Source of the DNA: Acidobacteriota bacterium
Lineage (GTDB): Bacteria > Acidobacteriota > Vicinamibacteria > Fen-336
Direction of reading: 5' to 3'
NCBI GenBank assembly: GCA_003223555.1
Contig: QHVM01000023.1
Span: forward strand, 1,912 to 65,911
DNA length: 64,000 bases
How positions within the stretch are numbered: the first letter of the stretch is position 1; every line of letters starts with the position of its first letter. Below the pieces are notes generated by a model, which worked only from the letters and a program-made list of their open reading frames with translations, did no database searches and was not told where the DNA came from. Shown piece by piece: positions 21,898 to 42,237 of this stretch. The position numbers and the translations under genes are program-made.

Positions 21898-23169
21898 TCA
21901 CCGGGACACCGTCCGCCACTCGAGCAGGGGCCTGACCACGCCGCCGAAGCGGCCGAAGTAGTCCTTCCGCACCGCGGGGCTGTCGAGCACCTCGATCCTC
22001 AGGACGTCGCGGGTCATGGTCCCGTCCACGAACCCCTTGCCGAAGAGGTTGACGGCCAGGCTGAACCAGCCGTCGTTCAGGAAGTTCGCGGGGACGCGGC
22101 AGGAGCTACGGTACTCCCCGGACGGCATCGGACGACCGTACCAGCACGATTCGTGGTTGTTGATGGAGGAGAACACGATGTTCTGCTCGTCGTCGAAGAG
22201 GATCGCCGTCAGTCCCACGTAGGTCCCGGGAGTCGTGACCCGGAAGTCGATGTCCACGTCGAAAGCGGTGTCGGTATGGACCTGGGACAGCGCTTCTCCG
22301 TCCACGCCGCGGAGGGTGATCCGGGAGAGGATCGCGGAGGCGTTCCGGGGGGCCGCCCGCTCATCCGGCCATTCGCGGGACAGGACGGCGGTGCCGGCCT
22401 CGCCCAAGTACCGGGAGACGACCTCGCTGGCCGACCCCGCGGCGACCAGCGAGCCGCCCCGGAGAAGCAGCGCCCGGTCGCACAGCGTCCGCACCGCGCT
22501 CATGTTGTGGCTCACGAACAGCACGGTCCGCCCTTCGCGCCCCACCGATTCCATCCGACCCAGGCACTTCCGCTGGAACGCCGCGTCCCCGACCGCCAGG
22601 ACCTCGTCCACCACCAGGATGTCCGGCTCCAGGTGCGCGGCCACCGCGAAGGCCAGCCGCACGTACATGCCCGAGGAGTACCTCTTGACCGGCGTGTCCA
22701 GGAAGCGCTCGACCTCCGCGAAGGCGACGATCTCGTCGAAGCGTCTCTTGATGTCCGCCCGCCGCATGCCCAGGATGGCGCCGTTCAAGAAGATGTTCTC
22801 CCGGCCCGTCAGCTCCGGATGAAAGCCGGTCCCCACCTCGAGCAGGCTGGCCAGGCGGCCGCGCAGGGTCAGCCGCCCTTCCGAGGGCTCCGTGATGCGG
22901 CTCATGAGCTTGAGCAGCGTGGACTTGCCGGCTCCGTTGGGCCCGATGATGCCGATGCGCTCGCCCGGCGCGACGTGGAACGAGACCTTCTCGAGGGCGT
23001 AGAACTCCTCGCGTCCCGCCATCCCCCGGTCGAGCCTCCGCCCCCGCAGCCTCGCCGCCAGCCGCCGCGCGCGCACGGCCAGATCGTCCCGCAGCGTGAG
23101 GTAGCGCTCGGGATGCTGGTGGCGCAGGACGTATTTCTTAGAGAGCTTCTCGGCGATGATCGCGGACAT
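21898..23169 (-). CDS. wzt: polysaccharide ABC transporter ATP-binding protein (Wzt-like) with C-terminal glycan-binding extension
   Basis: GIIGPNGAGKSTLLK (Walker A), YSSGMYVRLAFA (signature), ILVVDEVL (Walker B), plus a ~180-aa C-terminal beta-rich domain; start taken at MSAIIAEKL. Confidence 0.85.
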   Translation of the reverse strand: MSAIIAEKLSKKYVLRHQHPERYLTLRDDLAVRARRLAARLRGRRLDRGMAGREEFYALEKVSFHVAPGERIGIIGPNGAGKSTLLKLMSRITEPSEGRLTLRGRLASLLEVGTGFHPELTGRENIFLNGAILGMRRADIKRRFDEIVAFAEVERFLDTPVKRYSSGMYVRLAFAVAAHLEPDILVVDEVLAVGDAAFQRKCLGRMESVGREGRTVLFVSHNMSAVRTLCDRALLLRGGSLVAAGSASEVVSRYLGEAGTAVLSREWPDERAAPRNASAILSRITLRGVDGEALSQVHTDTAFDVDIDFRVTTPGTYVGLTAILFDDEQNIVFSSINNHESCWYGRPMPSGEYRSSCRVPANFLNDGWFSLAVNLFGKGFVDGTMTRDVLRIEVLDSPAVRKDYFGRFGGVVRPLLEWRTVSR

Positions 23170-23229
23170 GGAATCGGGGCGGGCACGGCAACGCCGAGCG
23201 GGGGGCATCTTGCGGTCGCCCGGCCGCGA

Positions 23230-24099
23230 TCAGATCACGTCCGCGAAGCTCCGCTCGGCCTTCCGGAAATACCATAGCCCGGAGATCACCAGGAGGGCCA
23301 CCACCGTCGCCGCCAGGAAGAGGCCGCTCCAGTATAGCGTAAACGCCCGGCCGAGGATCGCCCACCGGAAGCCGTCGATCACGCCCACCAGCGGGTTGAG
23401 CGAGTAGAGCAGGCGCCAGCGCGCCGGGACCACGTCGCTCGAGAACCCGACCGGCGAGACGTAGAGCCCGAACTGCACCACGAAGGGAACGATGTACGTG
23501 AAGTCGCGGTACTTCACCGTCAGGGCCGAGAACCAGAGTCCGCCGCCCACCGCGGTCGCCGCGGCCAGCAGCACGAAAAGGGGCAGGGCGGCCAGCCGCA
23601 CGGTCGGCAGCACTCCGTACCAGGCCATCAGGCCGGCGAGCAGCGCCAGCGACATCAGGAAGTCGACGAAGCTCACCACGACGGCGCCGATGGGTATCAC
23701 CATCCGGGGGAAGAACACCTTCGAGACCATGGACGCGTTGGCGAGCAGGCTGGCGCTGCTGCCGGCCAGGGCGCTGGCGAAGAACTGCCAGGGCAGTAGG
23801 GCGGCGAAGACGAGGACCGGGTACGGCACCCCGTTCGACGGCAGCCTGGCGATGCGGCCGAAGACGACGGTGAAGACGAGCATGGTGGCCAGCGGGCGCA
23901 CGAGGGCCCATGCCACGCCGATGGCGGCCTGCTTGTACTGGACCGTGACGTCCCGCCAGGCCAGGAAGTAGAACAGCTCCCGGTAGCGCCAGAGATCTCT
24001 CAGGTACTGGCCGGCCGGTCGACCGGCCTCGATCACGAGCAGCTCTGTGGGCGCCTCCGGCGAGGCGGTCCGGCCGGTCGCCTCGGCGGGCGCCGCCAC
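23230..24099 (-). CDS. wzm: ABC-2 type polysaccharide exporter permease (Wzm-like)
   Basis: ...YLRDLWRYRELFYFLAWRDVTVQYKQAAIGVAWALVRPL... plus 6 TM segments; GTG start at 24099 (an alternative GTG lies at 24036). Confidence 0.75.
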   Translation of the reverse strand: MAAPAEATGRTASPEAPTELLVIEAGRPAGQYLRDLWRYRELFYFLAWRDVTVQYKQAAIGVAWALVRPLATMLVFTVVFGRIARLPSNGVPYPVLVFAALLPWQFFASALAGSSASLLANASMVSKVFFPRMVIPIGAVVVSFVDFLMSLALLAGLMAWYGVLPTVRLAALPLFVLLAAATAVGGGLWFSALTVKYRDFTYIVPFVVQFGLYVSPVGFSSDVVPARWRLLYSLNPLVGVIDGFRWAILGRAFTLYWSGLFLAATVVALLVISGLWYFRKAERSFADVI

Positions 24100-25127: not shown

Positions 25128-25780
25128 TTCACTCCCTGGGCGTAGAGTGACTCGTAGCGGCGCTCCGGCTGATCCAGGGCGGGGTCGAAGGGCCGCAGGC
25201 GCACCTCCCTGAGGCCGATCTGCCCGAGCAGGGCCAGGATGCTCTCCTCGTCGAACATGTGGCGGTGCTCGCCGTCCATGTAGAACATGTAGTTCACGTA
25301 GTCGATCGGCGTACGGAGCGACAGCCCCGTGTCGTAGGTGCAGTAGGTCCGGGCGTCGAACGTCTCCGGGTGGGCATAGGCCTCGAGGTAGATCCTCGCG
25401 TTGGGGACGGCCAGGCTGAAGACCCCGTTCGGCTTGAGCGTCCGGTAGCAATCCCGCAGGAGCGCCACGAGGTCGGGGTACCGGAAGTGCTCCAGGACGT
25501 GCTCGGAATAGATGAGGTCGAGCGACTCGTCGGGGAAGGGCAGGCCCAGGCGCAGATCATAGGGGAAGTCGGTGCGGAAGCTGAGGTCGGAGGTGATGAA
25601 GCCCTCCTTGGTCTTGACCCCTCCGGGGCCGATCTCCAGCCGGTTGACCCGGCGCTTGTCGAAGAAAAGCCGGGCCTTGACGAGCCCGACCAGGGAGCAG
25701 AGGTGGGTCCGGGCTTCCGCCCGAACGAGGGCGCAGCTCTCGCGAAGCCGGCCGGGATACCGGGAACGCATCTGGACCGT
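25124..25780 (-). CDS. class I SAM-dependent methyltransferase; first gene of the long operon
   Basis: ...LEIGPGG...LIYSEHVLEHF...LKPNGVFSLAVP; begins at MRSRYPGRL; the preceding ~525 aa of ORF is antisense junk of asnB2. Confidence 0.65.
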   Translation of the reverse strand, partial: TVQMRSRYPGRLRESCALVRAEARTHLCSLVGLVKARLFFDKRRVNRLEIGPGGVKTKEGFITSDLSFRTDFPYDLRLGLPFPDESLDLIYSEHVLEHFRYPDLVALLRDCYRTLKPNGVFSLAVPNARIYLEAYAHPETFDARTYCTYDTGLSLRTPIDYVNYMFYMDGEHRHMFDEESILALLGQIGLREVRLRPFDPALDQPERRYESLYAQGVK

Positions 25781-25879
25781 TCCTGCCGCCGCTGGCGCCG
25801 GCACGATTGTCCTAGAATAGCGTTTCGTCGTCCAACGCGGGAACGGCGCGGATGCCGTGCTCGCCCGGGGCCCCTGCGC

Positions 25880-27751
25880 ATGTGCGGCATCTTCGGCTTC
25901 GTCGGCCACCTCTCGGCGGACCTCGCCTCCGCGTGCGTCGACTCTCTCGCCCACCGCGGCCCCGACGGGCGCGGGCTCTGGCGGACACCGGAGGTCACGC
26001 TCGGCCATCGACGCCTGGCCATCCTCGATCCGTCGCCCCGGGGCGAGCAGCCCATGTCCTTCCTGGACGGGCGATACCGGATCACGCTGAACGGCGAGAT
26101 CTACAACTTCCTCGAGCTGCGCGAGGAGTTGCGGGACCGGTACTCGTTCCAGAGCGAGTCGGACACCGAGGTCCTCCTCGCCGCCTTCGCCCGGTGGGGG
26201 CCCGCCGGCCTGGACCGGTTGAACGGGATGTGGGCCTTCGCCGTCTGGGACGACGACGAGAAGCGCCTCTTCCTCGCCCGGGACCGGTTCGGCAAGAAGC
26301 CGCTCTTCCACGTCCGGGTGGCGGACGGGTTCGCGTTCGCCTCCGAGATGAAGGCGCTCTTCCCCCTGCTCGATCAGGTTCGGCCCAACGTTTCGCTGGT
26401 CCGGGACACGGCCCGCCTCATGCAGTACGAGTCCACCCGCGAGTGCGTCATCGAGGGGATCGAGCGCCTGCCCGCCGGCCACTACGCGTGGTTCGGCGAC
26501 GGCCGCCTGGAGACGCGGCGCTGGTGGTGCACGCTGGATCACCTGCCGCGGGTCCCCGGCCGCTTCGAGGAGCAGGGGGAGCAGCTCCGCGGCCTCCTCC
26601 TGGACGCCTGCCGGCTGCGGATGCGCAGCGACGTCCCCCTCGGGACGGCCCTCAGCGGAGGGCTGGACTCGAGCGCCGTCGCTTCCGGCATGAGCCACGC
26701 CGCCCGCCGCGCCGGCACGGAGCGGGTGCACCGGCGCTGCCAGCATGCCTTCGTGGCCTCGTTCCCCGGTACTTCCCTGGACGAGGTGCCCTACGCGCGC
26801 GCGGTGGCGGAGTACCTCGGCATCGAGCTGACGGTGGTCGAGGTGGATCCCCGGACCGCCCTCGACCGGCTGGACGACTTCCTCTACCGCTTCGAGGACC
26901 TCTACCTCACGAGCCCGATCCCGTTCATGCTGACCTACGAGGCGATCAAGGCCCGCGGCATCAGCGTCACCCTGGACGGCCACGGCGCCGACGAGCTCTT
27001 CGGCGGGTATCGCTTCGACTTCCTGAGGGCCCTCGGCGACGCGGGCTGGAACCTCGTGCAGGCGCGGCAGGTCCTGGACGCCTACTACGACAGCCAGCCC
27101 GCCGACAGCGTCCAATATGCCCGCCTCCCCGGGAAGCTTCCCTTCCTCGCCCGATGGCACGCCCGGAGGCTGGCCCGAAGGCTGCTGGGAGGCGCGGAGC
27201 AGGCGCGGGACCGCGACCATCCGGCCTGGCGGTCGCTCGACGAGCTGACGCGCGTGCTCTACGTCTCGGCTCACGAGACCGTGCTGCCGACCCTGCTCCG
27301 CAACTACGACCGTTACAGCATGGCGAGCGGGGTGGAGATCCGGATGCCCTTCCTCGACCACCGCATTGCGGCCTTCGCCTTTGCTCTGCCCTGGGACTCG
27401 AAGCTGCGCCGGGGGTACTCGAAGGCCGTGGTCCGGGAGGCGGTGGCGCCGATGCTGCCCCCGCTGATCGCCTATCGCAAGACGAAGATCGGGTTCAACT
27501 CGCCGACGGTGGACTGGATCAAGGGCCCGCTGCGCCAGTTCATGCTCGACACGCTGGCTGCCCGCTCATTCCGCTCGTGCCCGCTCATCGATCCGGAGGA
27601 GACGGCCCGGGAGATCATGGGCGTGATCACCGACCCGCAGGCGACCTTCCAGCGGGGCGAGCGCGCCTGGACGCTCCTCGCCCCCTATCTCTGGGAGCAA
27701 TCGGTCGTCAGGCGGGCCCGCGAAGCGCGATTGCAGTCGCTGCCCGCCTGA
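25880..27751 (+). CDS. asnB: asparagine synthase (glutamine-hydrolysing) family amidotransferase, second copy
   Basis: MCGIFGFVGH (Cys nucleophile) ... LSGGLDSSAVAS ... full-length; divergent from the 25780 operon. Confidence 0.85.
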   Translation: MCGIFGFVGHLSADLASACVDSLAHRGPDGRGLWRTPEVTLGHRRLAILDPSPRGEQPMSFLDGRYRITLNGEIYNFLELREELRDRYSFQSESDTEVLLAAFARWGPAGLDRLNGMWAFAVWDDDEKRLFLARDRFGKKPLFHVRVADGFAFASEMKALFPLLDQVRPNVSLVRDTARLMQYESTRECVIEGIERLPAGHYAWFGDGRLETRRWWCTLDHLPRVPGRFEEQGEQLRGLLLDACRLRMRSDVPLGTALSGGLDSSAVASGMSHAARRAGTERVHRRCQHAFVASFPGTSLDEVPYARAVAEYLGIELTVVEVDPRTALDRLDDFLYRFEDLYLTSPIPFMLTYEAIKARGISVTLDGHGADELFGGYRFDFLRALGDAGWNLVQARQVLDAYYDSQPADSVQYARLPGKLPFLARWHARRLARRLLGGAEQARDRDHPAWRSLDELTRVLYVSAHETVLPTLLRNYDRYSMASGVEIRMPFLDHRIAAFAFALPWDSKLRRGYSKAVVREAVAPMLPPLIAYRKTKIGFNSPTVDWIKGPLRQFMLDTLAARSFRSCPLIDPEETAREIMGVITDPQATFQRGERAWTLLAPYLWEQSVVRRAREARLQSLPA

Positions 27752-32190: not shown

Positions 32191-34368
32191 CTACCGCGTG
32201 GCCTGCTTGGTCATGGGGGCGGGCTCGTCCTGCCGCTTCGGGTGCTGATCGTCGTAGTAATGCCCATAGTAGTGGCTGTAATAGTGGCTGTAGTAGTAGG
32301 CGTTCTGCTCCATCGGCACGCGGTTCAGCACCACGCCGAGGATGCGCGCCCCGGTGTCCTTCACCCGCTCCAGCGTGTGGAGGACCGCCTTGCGGGGGAC
32401 GCGCTCGGCCTGGGCGACGATCAGCACGCCATCGCACGCCGAGGACAGGATGAGAGCGTCGGCCACCGCGCCGACTGGCGGGGTGTCGATGAGGACCCAG
32501 GAGTAGGCGGCCCGCAGGCCGTGGAGAAAGCCGCGGAGGAGCTGCGGGCTCATCAGCTCCGCGGGGCTGGGGGCATGGCTGCCGGAAGGGAGCAGGCTCA
32601 GGTTGGTGCCCTTGACGCGCTCCACGCACTCGGCGGTATCGGCCAGGCCCACCAGGATGTCCGACAGACCGGGGGACTTCTTGAGGCCGAGCAGCTCGTG
32701 GGCCTGGGGCTTGCGCAGGTCAGCGTCGAGGAGCAGCACCTGTCCGTCCATGGTGGCGAGCGTCAAGGCCAGGTTCACCGAGGTCAAGGTCTTGCCCTCG
32801 CCGGGGGCGGTCGAGGTCAGCACCAGCACGCGTGAGTCCTGGCCTGGCCACGAGTAGCTCAAGGCCATCCGCAAGACGCGGTAGCCCTCCATGAACGGGC
32901 CCTGCTGGTGCGAATTCGACAGCACCGGGCTTCCCGAGTCCTGGCCGTGCTCGGGGATAACGCCCAGGAGCGGCACCCCCAGGTGGAGCCGGACCTCCTC
33001 GGGAGTCTTGATGCTGTTGTCGAGGTACTCGAGGAAGAAGGCGGCCATCACGCCCAGCGCCAGCCCCAGGAAGAGGCCCATCGCGATGTCGCTGGGCCGG
33101 TTCGGGCGCACCGGGCTGCCGGGGACGGCGGCCGCGTCGACGATCCGGATGTTGGAGGCCTTCAGCTCCTGGGCGACGTCGGTCTGCTTGTGCCGCGCCA
33201 TCAGGCTGTTGAGCACCTCCTTGCTCGCGTCCAGCTCGCGCTTCAGGCTGTCGTACTGCACGCCGCGCCGGGACAGCTCGAGGGCCTCGCGCTTGGCCAT
33301 CTCGAGGGCGTCGGCCACCCCGTGCTCCTGGGCCACCGCCGCGCGGTAGTCGTTCTCGGCGGCCCGGATGACGCGCTGGGCCTCGCTGGCGATCTTCTCC
33401 CGTGTCTCCGTGATCTGGTTGCGGTTCTTGACGACCTCGGGGTGCTGGTCGAGGTAGCGCTCCTGGAGCTGGACGCTCTGGCGCTGGAGGCTGGCCAGCT
33501 CGACCCGCAGGGACCCGATGAGCGGGTTGCGCATCACCTCGGGCAGCTCCTCGGAGTTGGGCGCCTCCTTCATCTGCCGGTAGAGGGCCTCCTTCTCGAT
33601 CCGCTGCGTCTTGAGCGCGGTGAGGCTGGTGCCCAGCTCCCGCAGCCTCTGCTCGACCAGGGTCCGCCGCTCCTCGATGTTGACGATGCCGTCCTTCTCC
33701 TTCAGCTTCTGGAGGGCCAGCTCCGCCTGCTCGACCTTGTGGCGCTGTTCCTCGATCTGGCTGCCCAGCCACAGTCCCGCGTCGGCCGAGGTCTGGTAGC
33801 GGAACTCCATCGTCTGCTGGATGTAGAGCTGGGAGAGCTTGTTGGCGGCCTGGGCGGCCAGCTCCGGGCGGTAGGCCTCGAATCCCACCAGGACCAGCCG
33901 GCTGTTCCGGACCGGCTGCACCTTCACCCGGGACAGGAACTGATCGATGGCGGCCTCCATCACCCGGGAAGAGCCGGGCGCGCTGGCCTTCAGCGCCGCT
34001 CTCTGCTCGGCCGGCTGCGGCCCTCCGAACTCCGGGTCCTGGAAGAGGTCCATCTCCTCGATGACCTTGCGCACGAGCGCCCGGCTCTGCAGCAGCTTGT
34101 ACTGGGTCTGGTAGTAGTCGTCGCGCTCGGAGTCGACCCGGGCCACTTCCTTGAAGGTGAGGACGTTGGGGTTCTCGCGCTCGATGAGGATCTGCACGTC
34201 GGCTTCGTAGACGGGCCGGGTGAGCAGGGTGCGGACGGTCGCCGCGGCGGCCACGGTGAGGAAAACCGCCAGGACCAGCCGTCGCCGGCGCAGGACGACG
34301 TGCAGGTACTCCCAGAGATGGGTCTCTTCCGGGACGCCGGCCTGGCCTGCGGGAGCGGTTGTGGACAA
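32191..34368 (-). CDS. wzc: polysaccharide co-polymerase / tyrosine autokinase (Wzc / BY-kinase, GumC family)
   Basis: Two TM segments flanking a coiled-coil periplasmic domain; LTSTAPGEGKTLTSVNLA (Walker A); ILVAQAERVP; C-terminal Tyr cluster YYYSHYYSHYYGHYY; TTG start. Confidence 0.85.
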   Translation of the reverse strand: MSTTAPAGQAGVPEETHLWEYLHVVLRRRRLVLAVFLTVAAAATVRTLLTRPVYEADVQILIERENPNVLTFKEVARVDSERDDYYQTQYKLLQSRALVRKVIEEMDLFQDPEFGGPQPAEQRAALKASAPGSSRVMEAAIDQFLSRVKVQPVRNSRLVLVGFEAYRPELAAQAANKLSQLYIQQTMEFRYQTSADAGLWLGSQIEEQRHKVEQAELALQKLKEKDGIVNIEERRTLVEQRLRELGTSLTALKTQRIEKEALYRQMKEAPNSEELPEVMRNPLIGSLRVELASLQRQSVQLQERYLDQHPEVVKNRNQITETREKIASEAQRVIRAAENDYRAAVAQEHGVADALEMAKREALELSRRGVQYDSLKRELDASKEVLNSLMARHKQTDVAQELKASNIRIVDAAAVPGSPVRPNRPSDIAMGLFLGLALGVMAAFFLEYLDNSIKTPEEVRLHLGVPLLGVIPEHGQDSGSPVLSNSHQQGPFMEGYRVLRMALSYSWPGQDSRVLVLTSTAPGEGKTLTSVNLALTLATMDGQVLLLDADLRKPQAHELLGLKKSPGLSDILVGLADTAECVERVKGTNLSLLPSGSHAPSPAELMSPQLLRGFLHGLRAAYSWVLIDTPPVGAVADALILSSACDGVLIVAQAERVPRKAVLHTLERVKDTGARILGVVLNRVPMEQNAYYYSHYYSHYYGHYYDDQHPKRQDEPAPMTKQATR

Positions 34369-34391: not shown

Positions 34392-34450
34392 GTCGATCGA
34401 GGGAGTGTCGATTATACCCGAGCTCTCTATCCCCCGGAGGCCGTGCTCAT
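34392..34450 (-). promoter_or_regulatory. candidate promoter upstream of wzc: perfect -10 TATAAT overlapped by tandem ATCGACAC direct repeats
   Basis: minus strand reads gGTATAATCGACACtccctcgATCGACACctgag ~45 nt upstream of the wzc TTG start; a perfect TATAAT is conspicuous in a 70% GC context. Confidence 0.45.
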
Positions 34451-35781
34451 GCCTTCACGACGCGGCCGGAGGCGTGCGGCACCCGGCCGCACGCGTTCCG
34501 GGTGTCGACGACGAGCGAGATCGCGGACACCACCGCCGCATAGTCGATCTTCGAATGGTCGGTCACCACCACCGCCGCATCGTAGCGGGAAAGCCCGTCG
34601 TCGAGGGGAACCGACTTCAGCGCGAGCTGGTGATCTCGCATCCGCGGCAGGTGAGGGATGTACGGATCGTGGTAGTCGACCCGGGCCCCCGCCTGCTGCA
34701 GCATCTCGATGATCTCGACCGCGGGGCTCTCTCTCACGTCGGCCACGTCCTTCTTGTAGGCGACCCCCAGGATCAGGACGCGCGCGCCCAGCAGGCACTT
34801 GCCGGCCTCGTTGAGGGCGGCGGTCAGCCGCTGGACGACGTAGCGCGGCATGGCCGTGTTCACCTCGCCGGCCAGCTCGATGAAACGGGTGGACAGGCCG
34901 TACTCCCGGGCCTTCCACGTGAGGTAGAAGGGATCTATGGGAATGCAGTGGCCACCCAGGCCTGGCCCGGGATAGAACGCCGCAAAGCCGAACGGCTTGG
35001 TCTTGGCCGCTTCGATCACTTCCCAGATGTCGATTCCCATGGAGTCGAAGGTGACCTTCAGCTCGTTGACGAGGGCGATGTTCACGGCCCGGTAGGTGTT
35101 CTCGAGGATCTTGACCGCCTCGGCCACCCGGGCCGAAGACACCCGCACGACCTGGTCCAGGCCGCCCCGGTACAGGGCCTCCGCGAGCCGGGCCGAGTGC
35201 GGCCCCACTCCCCCCACCACCTTGGGGATGTTGCGCGCGGAGTAGCGAGGGTTCCCGGGGTCCTCGCGCTCGGGACTGAAGGCGAGGAAGAAGTCCTGCT
35301 CCACGCGCAGGCCGCTCGCCTCCAGCCGCGGGCGCACCACCTCGTCGGTGGTGCCGGGAAACGTGGTTGACTCCAGGACCACCAGCTGGCCCGGCCGTAT
35401 CGCGGCGGCGATGGCCTCGGCGGTCTTCTCGATGTAGGAAAGGTCGGGCTCCCTCTGGCGGGTGAGAGGAGTGGGCACGCAGATCAAGATCGCGTCGGCC
35501 TCGGCCAGCCGGGAGAAGTCGGCGGTCGCCTCAAAGCGGCCGCCGTCGAGCGCGGCCCGGATGCGCGCGGGATCGATGTGGAGGATGTAGGAGCCGCCCC
35601 CCTGCAGGGTGGCCACCTTCTCGCGGTCGACGTCGAAGCCCACCACCGGGAAGCCGGAACGGCTGAACTCCAGGAGCAGGGGCAGGCCGACATAGCCCAG
35701 TCCGATCACGCCTACCCTGGCCGTCTTGCCCTCGATGGCCCTCGCCAAGCCGTCGACGGCCGCGACCGCAAGCTCGGACAT
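34447..35781 (-). CDS. nucleotide-sugar 6-dehydrogenase (UDP-glucose / UDP-GlcNAc 6-dehydrogenase family; WbpA/TviB/Ugd-like)
   Basis: VGVIGLGYVGLPL...ICVPTP...GGHCIPIDP (catalytic Cys)...; start at MSELAV (an alternative ATG lies at 35802). Confidence 0.85.
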   Translation of the reverse strand: MSELAVAAVDGLARAIEGKTARVGVIGLGYVGLPLLLEFSRSGFPVVGFDVDREKVATLQGGGSYILHIDPARIRAALDGGRFEATADFSRLAEADAILICVPTPLTRQREPDLSYIEKTAEAIAAAIRPGQLVVLESTTFPGTTDEVVRPRLEASGLRVEQDFFLAFSPEREDPGNPRYSARNIPKVVGGVGPHSARLAEALYRGGLDQVVRVSSARVAEAVKILENTYRAVNIALVNELKVTFDSMGIDIWEVIEAAKTKPFGFAAFYPGPGLGGHCIPIDPFYLTWKAREYGLSTRFIELAGEVNTAMPRYVVQRLTAALNEAGKCLLGARVLILGVAYKKDVADVRESPAVEIIEMLQQAGARVDYHDPYIPHLPRMRDHQLALKSVPLDDGLSRYDAAVVVTDHSKIDYAAVVSAISLVVDTRNACGRVPHASGRVVKA

Positions 35782-35881
35782 AGACGCCGTATTGTGGCAC
35801 ATGCCGGCGGAGCACGGTCCGCCGGTTGGGTTTTGCCGGGTCCCGGATTAACCTTGGCGCGGAGGCCCTCCGGCGGGCACT

Positions 35882-36658
35882 ATGACGCTGGCCGTCTTCT
35901 ATTCCTTCGCCCGCTCGGGCGGCACGCTGGTGAACCGGTGCCTGGGCGCCATCCCCGGCAACCTCGTCCTCTCCGAGGTCAACCCCCACGGGGCGTTGGT
36001 GCCGGTCGAGGTGCAGGCCCGGGACTGGCTGGGCCTGGTCGGGCCCGGGGAGTTCGAGATCCTGGCCGGGAAGGGCTACGGGGCGAAGATCCGATGGCTC
36101 AGCGAGGCGGCCGCGAATCAGGGCCGCCACCTGGTGGTGCGCGACTGGCCGGCCCTGAACTTCCTGTCCGGGCTGTTCTCCGAATACTTCCAGCCCAGCC
36201 TGCTCCTGGAGCAGCAGCTGTACCTCACGCGCCACGGCCTGGCCCCTCCCTCGGCCGTGGTAGCGCGGCGCGGCGCCGCCGTCTACGAATCGGTGGTCCG
36301 CACGTTCGACCACCTGCGGGACCTGACGGCGGAGGCGTTCGGCGCCGCCTACCTCGCCTATGCGCGGGTCATGGACGGACGCCCGGTGATCCGCTTCGAG
36401 GAGTTCTGCCGCGAGCCGCAGCGGGAGCTGGCCAGGCTCTGCGGGTGGCTGGGCATCGCCTATTCCGATGGCTTCCTCGAGGGGTTCCCCGCCTTCGACC
36501 GGTGCACGGGGGACAACCGCGTCTCCGTGTCCTCCCGGGCCGGCAGCTCCGAGCGCATCGAGGTGCTCCCGGAGAATCGCGGCTCTCCGGCCTGGGTCGC
36601 GGCGGCCCGCGACCCGGCGTGCCGTGAGGCGGATCAGGTGTTCGGCTATGCCGACTGA
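35882..36658 (+). CDS. putative Stf0-type sulfotransferase
   Basis: N-terminal FYSFARSGGTLVNRCLG resembles the PAPS 5'-phosphosulfate-binding loop (xxRSGST) of Stf0-family sulfotransferases; RDWPALNFLS is a possible 3'-PB motif; coding-like composition. Confidence 0.5.
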   Translation: MTLAVFYSFARSGGTLVNRCLGAIPGNLVLSEVNPHGALVPVEVQARDWLGLVGPGEFEILAGKGYGAKIRWLSEAAANQGRHLVVRDWPALNFLSGLFSEYFQPSLLLEQQLYLTRHGLAPPSAVVARRGAAVYESVVRTFDHLRDLTAEAFGAAYLAYARVMDGRPVIRFEEFCREPQRELARLCGWLGIAYSDGFLEGFPAFDRCTGDNRVSVSSRAGSSERIEVLPENRGSPAWVAAARDPACREADQVFGYAD

Positions 36659-36998
36659 CCGGCCGGGGCAGGGGCAAGAGACGGGGTCGGCCTCCGACGA
36701 GGCCCTGTGGAGGGTGATCGAATCCCGTGATCGGGCCTTTGCCAAGGCCCACCGCACCGTCGTCGACAAGGAGGAGGAGATCCATCGGCTGAAGGCAGCC
36801 GCCACCGAGAAAGACCGTGAGATCACGCGACTGAAGCGGGAGGCCGACTGCAAGGACGATGAGATCCAGATGCTGACGCGGGCCGCCGCCGAGCGACTGG
36901 GCATCATCCAGCAACTGCAGGCTTCCCGCGAGTACAAGGCCGGCCTGACCCTCCTCCACCCGTGGCAGGCGCTGCGGAGGAAGCTCCATGCCGGGTGA
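36648..36998 (+). CDS. small coiled-coil protein, tandem paralog A
   Basis: MPTDRPG...ALWRVIESRDRAFAKAH...KDREITRLKREADCKDDEIQMLTRAAAE...EYKAGLTLLHPWQALRRKL; shares ~50% identity and its 11-nt overlap junction with paralog B. Confidence 0.5.
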   Translation: MPTDRPGQGQETGSASDEALWRVIESRDRAFAKAHRTVVDKEEEIHRLKAAATEKDREITRLKREADCKDDEIQMLTRAAAERLGIIQQLQASREYKAGLTLLHPWQALRRKLHAG

Positions 36999-37377
36999 CG
37001 CTGGCGCCGCCGGCCGTCCGAAGGGAGGACCACTCATGGCGACGGCTCCCGACGAGACCCTCTGGAGCCTCATTGAGTCGCGCGATCGCGCGTTCGCGAA
37101 GGCCCACGAGGCCTTTCAATCGTTGACGTGGCAGGCGGGCCAGAAGGACGAGGAGATCGCCCGGCTCAAGCAGGAGGCCGACCGCAAGGACGAGGAGATC
37201 CATATGCTGACCCGGTCGGCCGACGAGTGGCAGGTCCTCGTCCGGGAACTGGAGGCTTCCTGGGAATACAAGCTGGGCCTGATGCTCCTGCACCCGTGGG
37301 CCGTGGTGAGGCAGAAGGTCTCCGCGGACCCTCAGCGCACCCGCCACTTCCGCCCCACCCAGAACAGCCGCAGGTAG
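36988..37377 (+). CDS. small coiled-coil protein, tandem paralog B
   Basis: MPGDAG...TLWSLIESRDRAFAKAH...KDEEIARLKQEADRKDEEIHMLTRSADE...EYKLGLMLLHPWAVVRQKV; conserved relative to A. Confidence 0.5.
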   Translation: MPGDAGAAGRPKGGPLMATAPDETLWSLIESRDRAFAKAHEAFQSLTWQAGQKDEEIARLKQEADRKDEEIHMLTRSADEWQVLVRELEASWEYKLGLMLLHPWAVVRQKVSADPQRTRHFRPTQNSRR

Positions 37378-38108
37378 CCCGCGATGGTGCGCGCGATGCG
37401 CATCTTGCTCTGGCCGGCCCGCAGCGAGCCGTCGAGGGGCATGGCCACCTCGGAGATGGTGGCCCCGACCTGGATGAGCTTGGCCAGCAGCTCGACCATG
37501 CACTCGAAGCCGGGCGTCTCGAGGATCGCGGGGCCGTACCGTGTCTGGAGGCGCTTCAGGACGGGCGCGCTGTAGAGCCGGAAGAACGAGCTCATCGTGA
37601 GGATGCCGTGGATGCCCAGCAGCTCCTTGATCAGGCTGTTCGCCCCATGGCTCAGGAACACCCGCAGCGGCGTGTTGTTGGTCATGCCGCCCCCGTACAT
37701 GTAGGGGCTGGCCAGTACGACCTCGAAGCCCTCCCGGCGCCGCACGAGCATCTGCTGGAGCGTGTCGATGCGCGAGGTGTTGTCCCCCTCCATGGTGGCA
37801 ACCCAGTCGGCCTCGGCCAGGCGCGGCGCCAGGTGGGCGAAGCCGGTTCCGAAGGCGCGGCCCGGCCCCAGGTTCCTCTCGTGCCGGAGCACCTCGACGG
37901 CCAGGCTGCCCTTCTCCTCACGGATCTTCTCCCCCGTGCCGTCGGTGCTGCCGTCGTCGATGAAGACCGCCGCGCATTGCATCTGCCCGACCAGGCCCTC
38001 CTCCAGGCGGCGGAAGCCCGCGAGCAGCCGGGCGACGTTGGGCGACTCGTTGAGCAGAGGGACCAGGACGTAGAGGTGCGGCGGCTGGCCGCGACCCGCC
38101 TGGGTCAA
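37332..38108 (-). CDS. GT2 polyprenyl-phosphate glycosyltransferase (DPM1/ArnC-like, no TM tail)
   Basis: LYVLVPLLNESPNVARLLAG...AVFIDDGSTDGTGE...; TTG start in a TTGA overlap with the upstream decarboxylase gene. Confidence 0.7.
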   Translation of the reverse strand: MTQAGRGQPPHLYVLVPLLNESPNVARLLAGFRRLEEGLVGQMQCAAVFIDDGSTDGTGEKIREEKGSLAVEVLRHERNLGPGRAFGTGFAHLAPRLAEADWVATMEGDNTSRIDTLQQMLVRRREGFEVVLASPYMYGGGMTNNTPLRVFLSHGANSLIKELLGIHGILTMSSFFRLYSAPVLKRLQTRYGPAILETPGFECMVELLAKLIQVGATISEVAMPLDGSLRAGQSKMRIARTIAGYLRLFWVGRKWRVR

Positions 38109-39124
38109 CGCTCGTCCTCGAGGGTGAATCCCGGGTTGGCCTGCCGGATCTCCTCGAGGTGCTCGCGGAACCATTCCACCTGCCGGCGCATCCCCTCGCC
38201 GACGTCGATCCGCGGCCGCCAGCCGAGCAGGCATTCGGCCTTGCCGATGTCCACCGTGCGCTGGCGGGGGTCCTCGTAGCCGCGGGAGAAATCCGTATAA
38301 GGCACGAAGCGGAGCCGGGGCCTCGTGCGCGCGCCGGCCAGGCGCCAGACGAGATAGGCCAGGTTCACGATGCTGAGATGGTCGGCCGCCCCCACGTTGA
38401 CGACCTCGCCCTCCGCGTACGGAGCCTCGAGGACGCGGAGGGTGGCCTCCACCGCGTCCGAGACATGGGCGAAGGGGCGCGTCTGGGTGCCGTCGCCATG
38501 GATCGGCATCGGCTGGTCGGTCAGGGCCGCATGGATGAAGATGTCCTGGGGCCCGGACAGCCTGGAGAGCTGGTAGGTCGGTCCATAGATGCCGGAGTAG
38601 CGGACGATCGAGACGGGGACGCCGTGCGACTCGGCGTACGCGAAGCACAGGTGCTCGCCGTAGACCTTGGACACCGCGGAGGCCCAGCGGTTGATCTTCG
38701 AGTCACCCAGCACGAGCGTGCTCTCCTCGCTGAAGCGGGGATCCGGGTTCTTCCCGTACACGTCGTCGGTGGAGGCGAACAGCATGCGTGCCCCGTGGCG
38801 GCGCGCGCACTCCAGCACCACCTCGGTGCCCCTGCCGTTGACTTCCAGCGTGGCCAGGTACCCGGTGTAGCGCGGGATCTTCAGGGCAGCCAGGTGGACG
38901 AGGGTGGAGGCGCCGGCGGTGAGCCTCTCCATCGATCCGAGGTCCCGGACGTCGGCCTCGTGGAAGCGGAACGAGGGATGCTCGACGCACGACGCTAGGT
39001 TGACCCGGCGGCCCTGGGAGAGGTCGTCCACTCCCACGACCTCGTGCCCCTTCTCCAGCAGGGCGCGCGCGAGATGGGGCCCGATGAGGCCGGCGACGCC
39101 GGTGACCACGCCCCGCTCGCTCAG
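38105..39124 (-). CDS. SDR NAD-dependent epimerase/dehydratase, UDP-glucuronate decarboxylase (UXS / ArnA C-domain)-like, paralog 2
   Basis: VVTGVAGLIGPHL...HLAALKIPRY...KINRWASAVSKVYGEHLCFAYAE (cf. ArnA KRWIYSVSKQLLDRVIWAY); probable CTG start in a CTGA overlap (an alternative GTG lies 15 nt downstream). Confidence 0.75.
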   Translation of the reverse strand: MSERGVVTGVAGLIGPHLARALLEKGHEVVGVDDLSQGRRVNLASCVEHPSFRFHEADVRDLGSMERLTAGASTLVHLAALKIPRYTGYLATLEVNGRGTEVVLECARRHGARMLFASTDDVYGKNPDPRFSEESTLVLGDSKINRWASAVSKVYGEHLCFAYAESHGVPVSIVRYSGIYGPTYQLSRLSGPQDIFIHAALTDQPMPIHGDGTQTRPFAHVSDAVEATLRVLEAPYAEGEVVNVGAADHLSIVNLAYLVWRLAGARTRPRLRFVPYTDFSRGYEDPRQRTVDIGKAECLLGWRPRIDVGEGMRRQVEWFREHLEEIRQANPGFTLEDER

Positions 39125-40107
39125 GACGCCGTCCCTTCCCGCGCCGTCACCGCCCGCTGCCACTCCACGGTGCGGCGCAGGCCCTCGTCGAGGTCGACCC
39201 GGGGCGTGAAGCCGAGCCGATCCCGGGCCTTGGCGATGTCGGGCACCCGGTGCCGCACGTCTTCGTACCGGCCGAAGGTCTGATACGAGACCCGCTTGAC
39301 CTTCGGCTCGCCGCGTCCGGCCAGGCGCCATACCTTCTCGGCCAGGGCCTGGATCGTGACCGGCCGCGTGTCCCCGAGGTTGAAGATCTCCCCCACCGCC
39401 CGCTCCTCGAACATCGCCCGGACGATACCGTCCACGGTGTCGTCGACGTAGGTGAAGCTGCGCGTCTGCTGGCCGTCGCCGTGCACTTCCATCGGCTGGT
39501 CGCGCAGGGCGGCGTCGATGAACACCGCCTGCGGTCCCCCCCACCAGGTGCGGTTCTGGCCGGGCCCGTAGGACCCGAAAAGGCGGAGGACGATGACCGG
39601 CACGCCGCGCTCCTGCTGATAGGCGAAGCAGAGGTGCTCGTCGAAGATCTTGGACGTGGCGTAGGCCCAGCGCTTCACGCTGGTCTCGCCCAGGTAGAGG
39701 TCGTTCGTCTCCGCGAAGGGCAGGTGCGGGCTCTTGCCGTACACGTCGGAGGTGGAGGCGAGGACGAGCCTCGCCCCGACCCGGGCGGCCGCCTTCAGCA
39801 TCGACTCGGTGCCGTGGGTGTTGACGAGGAGGGTGTCGAGGGCGTTGCCGTAGCGGGGGATCTTGAAGGCGGCCAGGTGCACGACCACGGTGGCGCCGGC
39901 GGCCAGGCGCTGCATGGCCGCCCCGTCGCGAACGTCCTCGCGCACGAACCGGAAGCTCCGGTGCTCGACGAGCGGCTCCACGTTCAGCATGGTGCTCTGG
40001 GAGAGGTTGTCGATGCCGCAGACGGCATGGCCACGCTCGAGGAGCGCGCGGCTCAGGTTCGAGCCGATGAAGCCCGCCGCCCCGGTCACCACGATGCTCT
40101 CGGTCAT
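39121..40107 (-). CDS. SDR NAD-dependent epimerase/dehydratase, UDP-glucuronate decarboxylase (UXS / ArnA C-domain)-like, paralog 1
   Basis: MTESIVVTGAAGFIGSNL...HLAAFKIPRY...SVKRWAYATSKIFDEHLCFAYQQ. Confidence 0.8.
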   Translation of the reverse strand: MTESIVVTGAAGFIGSNLSRALLERGHAVCGIDNLSQSTMLNVEPLVEHRSFRFVREDVRDGAAMQRLAAGATVVVHLAAFKIPRYGNALDTLLVNTHGTESMLKAAARVGARLVLASTSDVYGKSPHLPFAETNDLYLGETSVKRWAYATSKIFDEHLCFAYQQERGVPVIVLRLFGSYGPGQNRTWWGGPQAVFIDAALRDQPMEVHGDGQQTRSFTYVDDTVDGIVRAMFEERAVGEIFNLGDTRPVTIQALAEKVWRLAGRGEPKVKRVSYQTFGRYEDVRHRVPDIAKARDRLGFTPRVDLDEGLRRTVEWQRAVTAREGTAS

Positions 40108-40131: not shown

Positions 40132-41343
40132 TCAGGCCAGCGACAGCTCCGCGAGCTGGAAGGTCAGGCGGCGGGGGTCCTCGCCGCCCGAGGCGGCGGG
40201 GACGAAGCAGCGGTTCATCCGCAGGGTGATCTCGAGCATGGGCGCCTCCGGCACGCCCGGCGGCAGGGGCACCTCGATCTCGAAGGGCCGGCTCCGGGTG
40301 AGGTCGAACCGGAGGAGGTACCTTCCGTTGAAGAGCACCTCGGCCCGGAGGGGCAGCACGCGCTCCGGTGAGCATTGCGCGGTGCCGGCGAAGCGCAGGC
40401 GCGTCTTGCCGCGCCAGTCCGGGAAGAGGAAGTATGCGCGGTCGGAGAGCCAGCGGTCCGGATAGGGGCTGGGCGGGAAGAGCCGGCTCAAGCGGCCGAA
40501 GATGAGGTTCGCCCCGAGGCTGCGCACGGACCGGCCCAGCCGCCGGAAGGCCGGGCGGTCCAGCCAGGGCAGGTCCCGCCGGATCCTCTCGCCCATCGCC
40601 GCCTGGTAGGCGTCCCACCCGTAATTGAAGTAGGCGGGAGGGAAACGGCGCCTCCCGTGGCGGCGCATCATCGACGCCAGCTCGGAGAAGCGATGCAGCC
40701 CGCCGGAGAAGGTCTTGGCGGCGGCATATTCCCTGAGGTTGCCCAGAAACTCGGGGATATATGCGATCTCGAAGCGCTTGGCAACCCGGATCCAGAAGTC
40801 CCAGTCCATCCCGTAGTGGAGCGATTCGTCGAGCATGCCCACCGCGTCGAAGACGCACCGGCGCCAGAACGCCGTCTGCTGCAGGATGTAATCGCTGAAG
40901 TAGACGAGCCGCCAGAGGCTGAAGGGCTCGGTGGACGGAAAGCGGCGGGTGACCCGGCCCGCCTCGTCGAGGAGGTATCCCTCCCCGTAGACCATCGCCA
41001 CATCGGGGCAGGCCCGCAGGTACGCGACGGCCTTGGTGACCGCTCCCGGCACGTAGGTGTCGTCGGAGTTGAGCCAGGAGACGATCTCGCCCCTGGCCAT
41101 CCGGAAGCCCTTGTTGATGGCCTCGGACTGGCCCCCGTCCGGCTCGGATATCCACCGCAGCCGTCCTTCGTGGCGGCGCAGGACCTCCAGCGTCTGGTCG
41201 GTCGATCCTCCGTCGACCACGATGTACTCGAGGTTCGGGTAGTCCTGGCCGAGCACGCTCTGGATGGTGTCCTCGATGAAGCGGCCCTGGTTGTAGGAAG
41301 GCGTGACGATGGAGACCAGCGGAAGGACCTCGGCCTGGGCCAT
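40132..41343 (-). CDS. family 2 glycosyltransferase
   Basis: LPLVSIVTPSYNQGRFIEDTIQSVLGQDYPNLEYIVVDGGSTD. Confidence 0.75.
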   Translation of the reverse strand: MAQAEVLPLVSIVTPSYNQGRFIEDTIQSVLGQDYPNLEYIVVDGGSTDQTLEVLRRHEGRLRWISEPDGGQSEAINKGFRMARGEIVSWLNSDDTYVPGAVTKAVAYLRACPDVAMVYGEGYLLDEAGRVTRRFPSTEPFSLWRLVYFSDYILQQTAFWRRCVFDAVGMLDESLHYGMDWDFWIRVAKRFEIAYIPEFLGNLREYAAAKTFSGGLHRFSELASMMRRHGRRRFPPAYFNYGWDAYQAAMGERIRRDLPWLDRPAFRRLGRSVRSLGANLIFGRLSRLFPPSPYPDRWLSDRAYFLFPDWRGKTRLRFAGTAQCSPERVLPLRAEVLFNGRYLLRFDLTRSRPFEIEVPLPPGVPEAPMLEITLRMNRCFVPAASGGEDPRRLTFQLAELSLA

Positions 41344-41373
41344 GGATTCAGGTGGGTGGGTCCGGCCAGGGGC

Positions 41374-42237
41374 TCAGGGCGCGCTTCCCGCCCCGAGGCC
41401 CCGCTGCGCACGGCGGCCGCGATGATACCACTTGTGGTGCAGGTAGCCGACCGCCTGGTAGAGCCGCCTCCAGCGGGCGGGAGGCCCGAGCCACCGCCCG
41501 GGCCCGGCCGCCATCCGGTCGTGCCACAGGCCGATGAAGTACGTCCGGCCCACCCGGCCGAGCTGCGTCTCGCAGACGGCGAAGATCTCGCGCAGCACGT
41601 CGCGCCGCTCGGCCAGGGTCTTGGCTCCCGGATGCAGGCGCGTGGCGGCGAGGATGCGCGGCAGGTGCTCCAGCCGGCCGCCGGCCCGGGCCAGCCGCAG
41701 CCAGTACTCGTAGTCCATCGCGTAGCGCAGCGCCTCGTTGAACGGCCCCACTCGCCCGGCGACGCGCGAGCGCCAGAAGGCCGCCGGCTGGCAGACGACG
41801 TTCTCCTCCGCCAGGCGCGAGAAGGAGTACTCGGCGGTGGGATAGGCGCCGATGACGCGGTCTTCCTCGTCGACGTAGTCGGCGTCCCCGTAGACGAGAT
41901 CGCATTCCGCGTTCCGGGCCAGGTGCTGCACCACGGCCTCCACCGCGCCCGGCCGTAGCAGGTCGTCCGAGTTGAGGTAGGCGAAGACCTCTCCGTGGGC
42001 CCCGGCAAAGCCGCGGTTCAGCGCGGCGCTCTGGCCGGCGTCGGGCTGCGAGTCCCACCGCAGGCGGTCGCCGTAGGAGCCGAGGATCTCCCGCGAGCCG
42101 TCGGTCGACCCCCCGTCGCAGACGATGTACTCGATGCGCGGATAACCCTGGCCGAGCACGCTCTCGATCGTCCGGCGCAGGAACCGGCCCTGGTTGAACG
42201 ACGGCGTCACGATGGAGACGAGAGGCAGGCCTTCCAT
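41374..42237 (-). CDS. family 2 glycosyltransferase (paralog of 40132-41343)
   Basis: MEGLPLVSIVTPSFNQGRFLRRTIESVLGQGYPRIEYIVCDGGSTD; ATG shares its A with the upstream TGA (TGATG). Confidence 0.75.
   Translation of the reverse strand: MEGLPLVSIVTPSFNQGRFLRRTIESVLGQGYPRIEYIVCDGGSTDGSREILGSYGDRLRWDSQPDAGQSAALNRGFAGAHGEVFAYLNSDDLLRPGAVEAVVQHLARNAECDLVYGDADYVDEEDRVIGAYPTAEYSFSRLAEENVVCQPAAFWRSRVAGRVGPFNEALRYAMDYEYWLRLARAGGRLEHLPRILAATRLHPGAKTLAERRDVLREIFAVCETQLGRVGRTYFIGLWHDRMAAGPGRWLGPPARWRRLYQAVGYLHHKWYHRGRRAQRGLGAGSAP

Follow-up and report, generated by a model that had tools for sequence, protein, structure and literature searches.

What is a sulfotransferase gene doing next to two small coiled-coil genes in the middle of a bacterial glycan locus? 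We addressed this question in a 64-kb stretch of DNA (the window; 64,000 nucleotides, G+C = 70.6%) from contig QHVM01000023.1 of an Acidobacteriota bacterium, where a plus-strand unit of three open reading frames (ORFs) is flanked on both sides by blocks of minus-strand glycan genes. ORF1 (35882–36658, 258 aa), ORF2 (36648–36998, 116 aa) and ORF3 (37036–37377, 113 aa from its likely start; 129 aa from an alternative in-frame ATG at 36988) carry the NCBI locus tags DMF80_03435, 03440 and 03445 and are each annotated as "hypothetical protein". An earlier reading of the bare sequence (the original prediction) had described this unit, and all three ORFs were found where it had placed them. Its interpretation stood in part: neither the "Stf0-like" label of the enzyme nor the absence of an assignable function for its partners held. 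Our best explanation as a whole, to which we give a probability of roughly 0.55, is a split, WbdD-like chain-terminating sulfotransferase with detached copies of its stalk. The comparison set comprised 49 species-representative loci plus metagenome contigs; comparison loci and contigs are labelled L### and homologous proteins P####.

The plus strand is the coding strand, because G+C at third codon positions (GC3) is high in ORF1 (0.93), ORF2 (0.85) and ORF3 (0.88–0.91; 0.91 from 37036) and reaches only 0.60–0.71 in the antisense ORFs 36369–37073, 36904–37503 and 35531–37033. Measured against the orthologues in L054, which has a single stalk gene, the ratio of nonsynonymous to synonymous divergence (dN/dS) is 0.23 for ORF2, 0.20 for ORF3 and 0.30 for the enzyme gene. 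ORF2 has also been called as a gene in L051 and L052 and by NCBI (PYQ16788), and both small ORFs are conserved and syntenic in related genomes (e.g. L054, L051, L052). ORF2 and ORF3 are thus real genes under purifying selection and not antisense artefacts, as GC3, conservation, synteny and selection all indicate.

ORF1, for which 195 homologues were found, carries the N-terminal P-loop-like motif FYSFARSGGTLV at residues 6–17, as had been noticed originally. Across 32 aligned homologues, R11-S12-G13-G14-T15, E32, R129, S137 and C208-T209-G210 are invariant; E32 lies 21 residues past R11, and R129-x7-S137 forms the R-x7-S 3'-phosphate-binding motif. A profile search of Protein Data Bank (PDB) sequences with ORF1 returned weak sulfotransferase matches (best E = 0.015), in which the ORF1 loop aligns with PRSGST of the CurM and OLS sulfotransferase (ST) domains, so that a structure search was needed to settle the fold. 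The AlphaFold2 (AF2) model, built on the homologue alignment, has a mean predicted local distance difference test (pLDDT) score of 91.5 and adopts the sulfotransferase alpha/beta fold. All 19 Foldseek matches in the PDB at E ≤ 0.001 are sulfotransferases that use 3'-phosphoadenosine 5'-phosphosulfate (PAPS), led by the OLS ST domain (4gox, E = 2e-6), TPST2 and the CurM ST domain. PF13469 matches ORF1 at 21.5 bits (E = 3e-4), below its 27-bit gathering threshold and over the C-terminal part only; several homologues have a precomputed PF13469 match, and nothing was found for ORF1 among the NCBIfam profiles. A bifunctional ATP-sulfurylase/APS-kinase (APS, adenosine 5'-phosphosulfate) gene adjoins the 71%-identical ORF1 homologue in L001, and genes for APS kinase, PAPS synthase or CysD lie within 10 kb of the sulfotransferase in 11 related loci. 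Because of the confident model and its fold matches, the invariant RSGGT and R-x7-S motifs and the PAPS-synthesis genes beside homologues, ORF1 is very probably a PAPS-type sulfotransferase, with its activity predicted.

The family of this enzyme is another matter. ORF1 had been likened to Stf0 (PF09037), the trehalose sulfotransferase of mycobacteria, with which it shares the superfamily fold and an Arg-type PAPS loop; Stf0 is not known to have a coiled-coil partner. PF09037 gave no match to ORF1 at E ≤ 1, and Stf0 (1tex) ranks 41st in the Foldseek PDB list (E = 7e-3, TM-score about 0.40), behind the OLS, CurM and TPST enzymes. The nearest relatives of ORF1 are therefore TPST and the CurM/OLS enzymes of the PF13469 (Sulfotransfer_3) clade, not Stf0. 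They have in common the R-S-G-x-T 5'-phosphosulfate loop, the R-x7-S motif and a Glu ~21 residues after the loop Arg, by the residue numbering of TPST2 and CurM. They differ in sequence (17–21% identity, with ORF1 below the Pfam threshold) and in substrate, which for ORF1 is predicted to be a glycan rather than a protein tyrosine or a polyketide intermediate. ORF1 represents a subfamily that is new within a known superfamily and has been poorly annotated.

ORF2 and ORF3 are 52% identical (BLASTP, E = 2e-36; 78% across 158 nt of DNA) and have in common the sequence blocks quoted in the original prediction, which had put the two paralogues at ~50% identity. Their sizes had been given as ~117–129 aa; ORF2 has 116 aa, and ORF3 reaches 129 aa only from 36988. 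ORF3 most likely starts at 37036 with its own ribosome-binding site and ATG: a strong Shine-Dalgarno sequence, GGGAGGA (37023–37029), precedes this ATG, the homologues of ORF3 all start about 8 residues before the LW motif, and independent gene calls on three related contigs and the NCBI record give the 113-aa form from 37036 or an equivalent start. At its other end, ORF3 lacks the stop codon of its homologues (...LRQKF*) and continues into an unconserved tail of 17 aa, which overlaps the 3' end of the convergent family 2 glycosyltransferase (GT2) gene by 46 nt (37332–37377); in L054 the corresponding genes are 53 nt apart.

Each small protein consists of an N-terminal motif (N-motif; LWRVIESRDRAFAKAH in ORF2), a coiled-coil stalk and a C-terminal motif (C-motif; SREYKAGLTLLHPWQALRRKL in ORF2). 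From the N-motif tryptophan to the C-motif serine ORF2 spans 72 residues and ORF3 65, exactly one heptad fewer. A word-indexed search yielded only five small homologues of ORF2 (P0121–P0125), which start with M-x4-8-LW-x-(I/L)-E-(S/A)-RDRAF, end with SREYKxGxxLLHPWxxLRxK and hold between these ends a variable number of 14-residue KDEEIxRLKAAxTE repeats. No curated Pfam or NCBIfam family matched ORF2 or ORF3 above threshold, and sub-threshold matches to BRE1, CEP85, Cbp1 and others were discarded as generic coiled-coil noise. When 1.8 billion representative proteins were searched with a hidden Markov model (HMM) of the small-protein family, about 20 true members were found. Matches outside these were used only if they also covered the C-motif; most of the 150 other listed matches were unrelated repetitive coiled-coil proteins that matched in the KDEEI-RLK repeats only.

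The relationship between enzyme and stalk becomes apparent from natural gene fusions. In cyanobacteria, ORF1 homologues occur as single sulfotransferase–coiled-coil (ST-CC) polypeptides (P0033, P0043, P0057, P0058 and P0063; loci L004, L008 and L011), in the order sulfotransferase, LGY, short linker, (I/L)WK(L/I)VxSRD, coiled coil and SSKFWKLRxxWFKFK. The AF2 model of the fused P0058 (pLDDT 90) comprises an ST domain (residues 1–255), a 72-residue helix (263–334), a kink and a further helix (337–356). Elsewhere the two parts are split, with one stalk gene in L001, L054 and the cyanobacterial L009, L012, L013, L014, L016, L017 and L020, and with two tandem stalk genes in the window, L002, L003 and L005. 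In L022, L024 and L025 the enzyme is likewise separate and the stalk runs on into a GT2 domain (N-motif, coiled coil, GT2). The HMM search also recovered three metagenome proteins from other phyla in which the same coiled coil and C-motif (S-x-E/K-Y-K/R...P-W) are fused to sulfotransferases of other, unrelated families, PF00685-type in P0128 and P0245 and weakly PF13469-like in P0196 (22.8 bits, cut-off 27). The stalk thus behaves as a portable module common to different sulfotransferase types.

One allele re-creates the fusion close to home. A metagenome scaffold from a near-identical strain (L056:1403–1520) carries a clean 52-nt deletion between CGG microrepeats, corresponding to window 36630–36681, which places ORF1 and ORF2 in one reading frame for a 354-aa protein (P0291) and leaves ORF3 behind them unchanged. 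This looks like a natural split/fused polymorphism; the fused allele rests on one scaffold, so an assembly artefact is possible. Because of the natural fusions and the L056 re-fusion allele, we conclude that enzyme and stalk form one functional unit in which the covalent link is optional, and that ORF2 and ORF3 are probably detached stalk or anchor subunits of the enzyme. The partner proteins, for which no function had been assignable, can thus be identified as its detached stalk module, and co-occurrence of the coiled-coil family with sulfotransferases, for which a search in other genomes had been suggested, was seen as adjacency or fusion across phyla.

The same observations bear on a simpler account, in which a Stf0-like sulfotransferase merely shares an operon with two small coiled-coil proteins whose functions are unrelated to it or unknown. 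The RSGGT loop does resemble the Stf0 PAPS loop, Stf0 is present in the fold search at rank 41, and the small proteins match no curated family. The failure of PF09037 at E ≤ 1, however, the closer OLS/CurM ST, TPST and PF13469 matches, the fusions, the re-fusion allele and the conserved adjacency across phyla make this account improbable; the fusions have largely refuted it already.

Asking whether the split might instead be damage, we considered ORF1 and ORF2 as a frameshifted, decaying or mis-assembled ST-CC gene and ORF3 as its degenerating duplicate. Fused forms do exist, including the one in a near-identical strain, and ORF3, its ancestral stop codon lost, reads on into the gene next to it. 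However, the same split is present on the independent contigs L051 (99.9% identical) and L052 (same gene layout), and a second NCBI metagenome-assembled genome (DMF81) encodes near-identical ORF2 and ORF3 proteins. The split is also kept, with differing junction designs, in L001, L002, L003, L005, L054 and many cyanobacteria, while a dN/dS near 0.2, high GC3 and the preserved heptad phase all speak against decay in ORF2 and ORF3. We regard damage as highly improbable.

ORF1 and ORF2 overlap by 11 nt (ATGCCGACTGA, 36648–36658, +), the ORF2 start codon lying inside the Tyr256-Ala257 codons of ORF1, and this overlap probably couples their translation. Where enzyme and stalk are split, the start of the stalk gene usually falls within the final codons of the enzyme gene. 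Overlaps of this type, with the ATG inside conserved G-Y-A/E codons, occur in the window, L002 and L005. The cyanobacterial split genes overlap by 8 nt (TATGAATGA, as deduced from coordinates), the L003 stalk gene probably has a TTG start, and in L001 and L054 the stalk starts 19–21 nt downstream of the enzyme, behind the Shine-Dalgarno sequence GAGGGAGG. TAT serves for four of the nine tyrosines of ORF1, and the TAT that supplies the junction ATG is a weak argument. Programmed +1 frameshifting that would fuse ORF1 and ORF2 was rejected as unsupported, there being no slippery context at GAC-TGA-C.

The original prediction held that this junction was itself duplicated, at 36648 and 36988, and the 11-nt pattern ATGCCGNNTGA indeed occurs exactly twice in 64 kb on both strands, at these two positions (shuffled sequences gave a mean of 0.45 matches, and two matches were reached in 6 of 100). 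The second copy belongs to a segment (36988–37029, +) that, by comparison with L054, is made up of a relic copy of the end of the sulfotransferase gene (CATGCCGGGTGA), then a spacer and lastly the Shine-Dalgarno sequence GGGAGGA. The 3' terminal sequence of ORF2, CATGCCGGGTGA, matches that of the sulfotransferase gene, TATGCCGACTGA in the window and TATGCCCATTGA in L054, and the last ORF2 codons, CAT-GCC-GGG-TGA, copy TAT-GCC-GAC-TGA of the enzyme. The junction of enzyme and stalk in L054 reads TATGCCCATTGA-GAGGGAGGG-ATG, and the junction of ORF2 and ORF3 likewise has a Shine-Dalgarno sequence followed by ATG. Because the end of ORF2 and this Shine-Dalgarno/ATG arrangement mirror L054, the duplication took in the stalk gene together with its ribosome-binding site and the final ~12 nt of the enzyme gene, in agreement with the claim that the duplication had included the junction. 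As a working start, the second junction (36988) probably does not serve. The relic now provides ORF2 with three extra residues (HAG) and its stop codon, and ORF2, which lacks the ancestral ATG, uses the overlapping one instead.

L054 has the same synteny as the window (enzyme, stalk gene, convergent GT2), and both ORF2 (71%) and ORF3 (67%) have its single stalk gene product, P0121, as their closest relative. A lineage-specific duplication is favoured, since both copies are closest to this single-copy protein. The synonymous divergence (dS) between ORF2 and ORF3, 0.72, is similar to that of each against L054, so that the duplication is about as old as the split between the window and L054. Pairwise identities are compatible with either a shared or a separate origin of the window and L002 duplications.

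Stalk length, taken as the number of residues from the N-motif W to the C-motif S, ranges from 55 to 148 across the family. The acidobacterial-type stalks (65–121 residues) all have lengths of 2 mod 7 (13 of 13 in phase), those of the L003/L005 clade (55–132 residues) of 6 mod 7 (4 of 4), and the cyanobacterial ones (64–148 residues) of 1 mod 7 (8 of 10), although slippage of the 14-residue repeats accounts for part of this regularity and the counts are not independent events. In the acidobacterial-type and L003/L005 clades, and in most cyanobacterial members, stalks differ in length by whole heptads only. Because length changes in whole heptads, the two end motifs keep a fixed angular relation, as expected of a continuous coiled coil with oriented contacts at both ends. 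In the two-copy loci L002, L003 and L005 the stalk pairs measure 86/72, 55/90 and 62/132 residues, respectively. Pairs as unequal as these speak against a full-length heterodimer as an obligatory form; the two copies may be alternative stalks that differ in length.

We then examined the genomic surroundings of the family. The sulfotransferase gene lies on the same strand as wzt in 24 of the 49 species loci, with wzt upstream in all but L005 and usually preceded by wzm; in 12 loci wzt and the sulfotransferase gene are separated by ≤135 nt. All but one of these 24 Wzt proteins have 409–511 aa, with a C-terminal extension of 150–220 residues. Pfam Wzt_C matched 9 of 10 sulfotransferase-linked Wzt proteins tested, 7 of them above the cut-off. 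In O-antigen export that depends on a terminator, Wzt_C binds carbohydrate and recognises the terminal cap (PMC9445017; PMC11231755). The window has its own wzm (23230–24042, −; ABC exporter, PF01061) and wzt (21898–23208, −; PF00005), the latter encoding 436 aa with a 161-aa C-terminal extension that gives a weak Wzt_C match (E = 0.012). It also holds a WecA-type initiating transferase and three GT2 genes of the subfamily that is elsewhere fused to the coiled coil, the GT2 domains of the CC-GT2 proteins in L022, L024 and L025 being 42–50% identical to them (tblastn). Two of the three, in tandem at 40132–42237 (−; PF00535), are candidate polymerase partners.

In terminator-dependent pathways, the terminator occupies the distal end of a molecular ruler that consists of a coiled coil (PMC11231755). 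The other end of the ruler carries an amphipathic membrane helix and a polymerase-recruitment site, as in WbdD, or polymerising glycosyltransferase modules, as in WbbB and ORF6-O7, and the extended coiled coil has been called "a characteristic marker" of the strategy (PMC11231755). By analogy, ORF1 would be a cytoplasmic, PAPS-dependent glycan sulfotransferase that docks on ORF2 or ORF3. Each of these has a short N-motif, (L/I)W-x2-(I/L)-x2-R-D, which always follows the enzyme immediately, then a continuous coiled coil, and finally the basic-aromatic C-motif, S-x-E-Y-K-x-G-x2-L-L-x-P-W, a putative membrane anchor. The stalk would keep the enzyme at a set distance from the glycan assembly machinery in the membrane. 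A growing undecaprenol-linked chain would receive sulfate at its non-reducing end as soon as its length allowed it to reach the enzyme atop the stalk, and the sulfate cap would then be read by the Wzt_C domain of Wzm/Wzt, leading to export. The segment between coiled coil and GT2 in L024 and L025 (e.g. AYRLAYGAVPVFRPLARIVRRI and SRHRRWRYIIVPTERLVKAL) resembles, as judged by eye, the stand-alone C-motif, which may be a hinge close to the membrane and not solely an anchor at the terminus.

The closest architectural parallel is WbdD, the kinase/methyltransferase of E. coli O9a and K. pneumoniae O3/O5, with its N-terminal capping enzyme, extended coiled coil and membrane-proximal C-terminus (PMC11231755; PMC3482155). 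Fused homologues of ORF1 likewise place the sulfotransferase N-terminal to one long helix, whereas the window has separate polypeptides, and at the family level the likeness extends to linkage with wzm-wzt encoding Wzt_C and to coiled-coil length as the variable parameter. The catalytic domain is unrelated, ORF1 matching sulfotransferases only, so the resemblance is one of architecture and not of descent. The predicted cap is sulfate instead of methyl or methyl-phosphate, and the stalk is separate, duplicated and shorter (65–72 residues), with its ruler and membrane roles predicted. L022, L024 and L025, where the coiled coil continues into GT2, recall WbbB of K. pneumoniae O12 and ORF6 of O7, which combine terminator, coiled coil and glycosyltransferase in one protein; here, however, the candidate terminator has its own gene, and in the window the GT2s are separate too, leaving every module as its own polypeptide. 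The nearest precedent for such dispersal of modules is serotype O4 (PMC11231755). The WbdD-like terminator reading thus rests on a family that reproduces both terminator layouts and on a window that contains wzm, wzt, a WecA-type transferase and GT2s of the coiled-coil subfamily. The specific terminator and ruler role, with capping rather than in-chain sulfation, we put forward tentatively, at somewhat less than even odds.

The main rival explanation is that a tethered enzyme sulfates residues within the chain. ORF1 would decorate internal residues of a Wzy- or ABC-type exopolysaccharide (EPS), as the Xss sulfotransferases do in cyanobacterial synechan, and ORF2 and ORF3 would only tether or oligomerise it at the membrane complex, with no influence on chain length. 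XssA and XssE of the synechan cluster of Synechocystis 6803 are bacterial polysaccharide sulfotransferases encoded in EPS gene clusters (PMC8205485). Synechan is made by a Wzx/Wzy-dependent route and has about two sulfates in each repeat unit of eight sugars; the word "coiled" does not occur in the paper (PMC8205485). Support for decoration comes from the Wzc-like polysaccharide co-polymerase (PCP) kinase, nucleotide-sugar dehydrogenase and GT2 neighbours in the window, L002 and L054, from a Wzy_C protein in L001, and from distant ORF1 homologues that have a short basic tail in place of the stalk. A plain tether, however, needs no heptad-quantised length with a conserved phase of the end motifs. 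Decoration also leaves unexplained the tight order of wzt (with Wzt_C) and sulfotransferase genes across at least eight phyla, and the terminator-CC-GT2 layout of L022, L024 and L025, which matches that of K. pneumoniae O7 ORF6. We consider this rival possible, and less probable than the split terminator.

Several observations weigh against the WbdD-like terminator. The C-motif has an unremarkable hydrophobic moment (0.40), contains a proline and forms no clear amphipathic helix, and the window stalks, at 65–72 residues, would measure about 10 nm, compared with roughly 20 nm for the WbdD stalk. The wzm-wzt pair of the window belongs to the same glycan supercluster as ORF1 and lies 12.7 kb away on the opposite strand; the units of L001, L002 and L054 are not adjacent to wzm-wzt either. 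Instead, the units of the window and its closest relatives have a Wzc-like PCP kinase and a nucleotide-sugar dehydrogenase as neighbours, in keeping with a Wzy-type EPS. Since distant ORF1 homologues lack the coiled coil, the ruler is not family-wide. No PAPS-synthesis gene was detected in the 64-kb window by tblastn with the L001 PAPS synthase, so the PAPS supply must be encoded elsewhere in the genome. Directly downstream of wzt lies a gene for a 226-aa S-adenosylmethionine (SAM)-methyltransferase-like protein (21183–21863, −), with only weak Methyltransf_11/12/25 matches and a basic tail (FVLRQFQRVVGRLYAAAERRRG); this protein could be another candidate terminator serving the same exporter. 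Finally, literature searches found neither a sulfate-capped bacterial glycan nor a sulfotransferase/coiled-coil terminator. The only near-precedent they returned is an unexplained sulfotransferase-domain ORF of Aeromonas salmonicida, located directly after wzt and before a WbbB homologue; the O-antigen concerned was reported to be free of sulfate (PMC4483657).

In its architecture, the unit varies the theme of the coiled-coil terminator in a new way, with a different chemistry, a separable and duplicated ruler and natural split and fused alleles. To our knowledge, the known terminators of ABC-transporter-dependent glycans use methyl, methyl-phosphate or 3-deoxy-D-manno-octulosonic acid (Kdo) caps and keep the coiled-coil ruler in the same polypeptide. 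The locus points to a new cap chemistry, sulfate, provided by a widespread and largely unannotated enzyme family, and to the ruler as a separable, duplicable subunit that evolves in heptad steps. If this is true, two ruler lengths (65/72 residues here, 62/132 in L005) would yield two preferred chain lengths from one enzyme. That all parts of this picture apply together, with sulfate as a previously unrecognised cap for ABC-transporter-dependent polysaccharides, read by Wzt_C, a detachable ruler and two paralogues setting two chain lengths, is a speculative proposal that we hold with reserve. Among bacteria, sulfated polysaccharides have been stated to be known only from cyanobacteria (PMC8205485). 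The sulfotransferase family was found in Cyanobacteria, Acidobacteriota, Verrucomicrobiota, Planctomycetota, Desulfobacterota, Patescibacteria and other phyla, and its presence together with adjacent PAPS-synthesis genes in many other phyla suggests that sulfated surface glycans occur well outside cyanobacteria. The family would also aid the annotation of many "hypothetical" genes adjoining wzt.

The minus-strand block upstream of ORF1 contains the genes for the nucleotide-sugar dehydrogenase (34447–35802, −) and the Wzc-like PCP/tyrosine kinase (32191–34368, −). On the other flank, the GT2 gene convergent with ORF3 (37332–38066, −) is followed by a tandem paralogue pair of NAD-dependent epimerase/dehydratase genes (38105–40107, −), beyond which the same block holds more GT2 and GT4 genes, including the tandem pair at 40132–42237. 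With paralogue pairs among both the epimerases and the GT2s, tandem duplication is a general habit of the cluster, not peculiar to the stalk genes.

Genes of the uncharacterised GSCFA family (PF08885) recur with the sulfotransferase family, often between wzt and the sulfotransferase gene, and were located in the window (1–750, −), L001 (4656–5906), L003 (7985–9067), L005 (9266–9676), L024 (8454–9539) and L026 (304–1500). The window copy is partial, at the edge, beside a Wzy_C (O-antigen-ligase-like) gene (1112–2704). Another isolated plus-strand islet of the window is an asparagine-synthase-like amidotransferase gene (25259–27751, +; GATase_6/7 and Asn_synthase domains). The 79-nt divergent intergenic region that immediately precedes ORF1 contains a G+C-rich, nine-pair hairpin followed by a T-run (35803–35826, +), which could be a structure in the 5' untranslated region or a terminator-like element. 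It is the sole hairpin with a T-run from the promoter/terminator scan, and shuffled sequences average 0.5 such sites, so that it may have arisen by chance.

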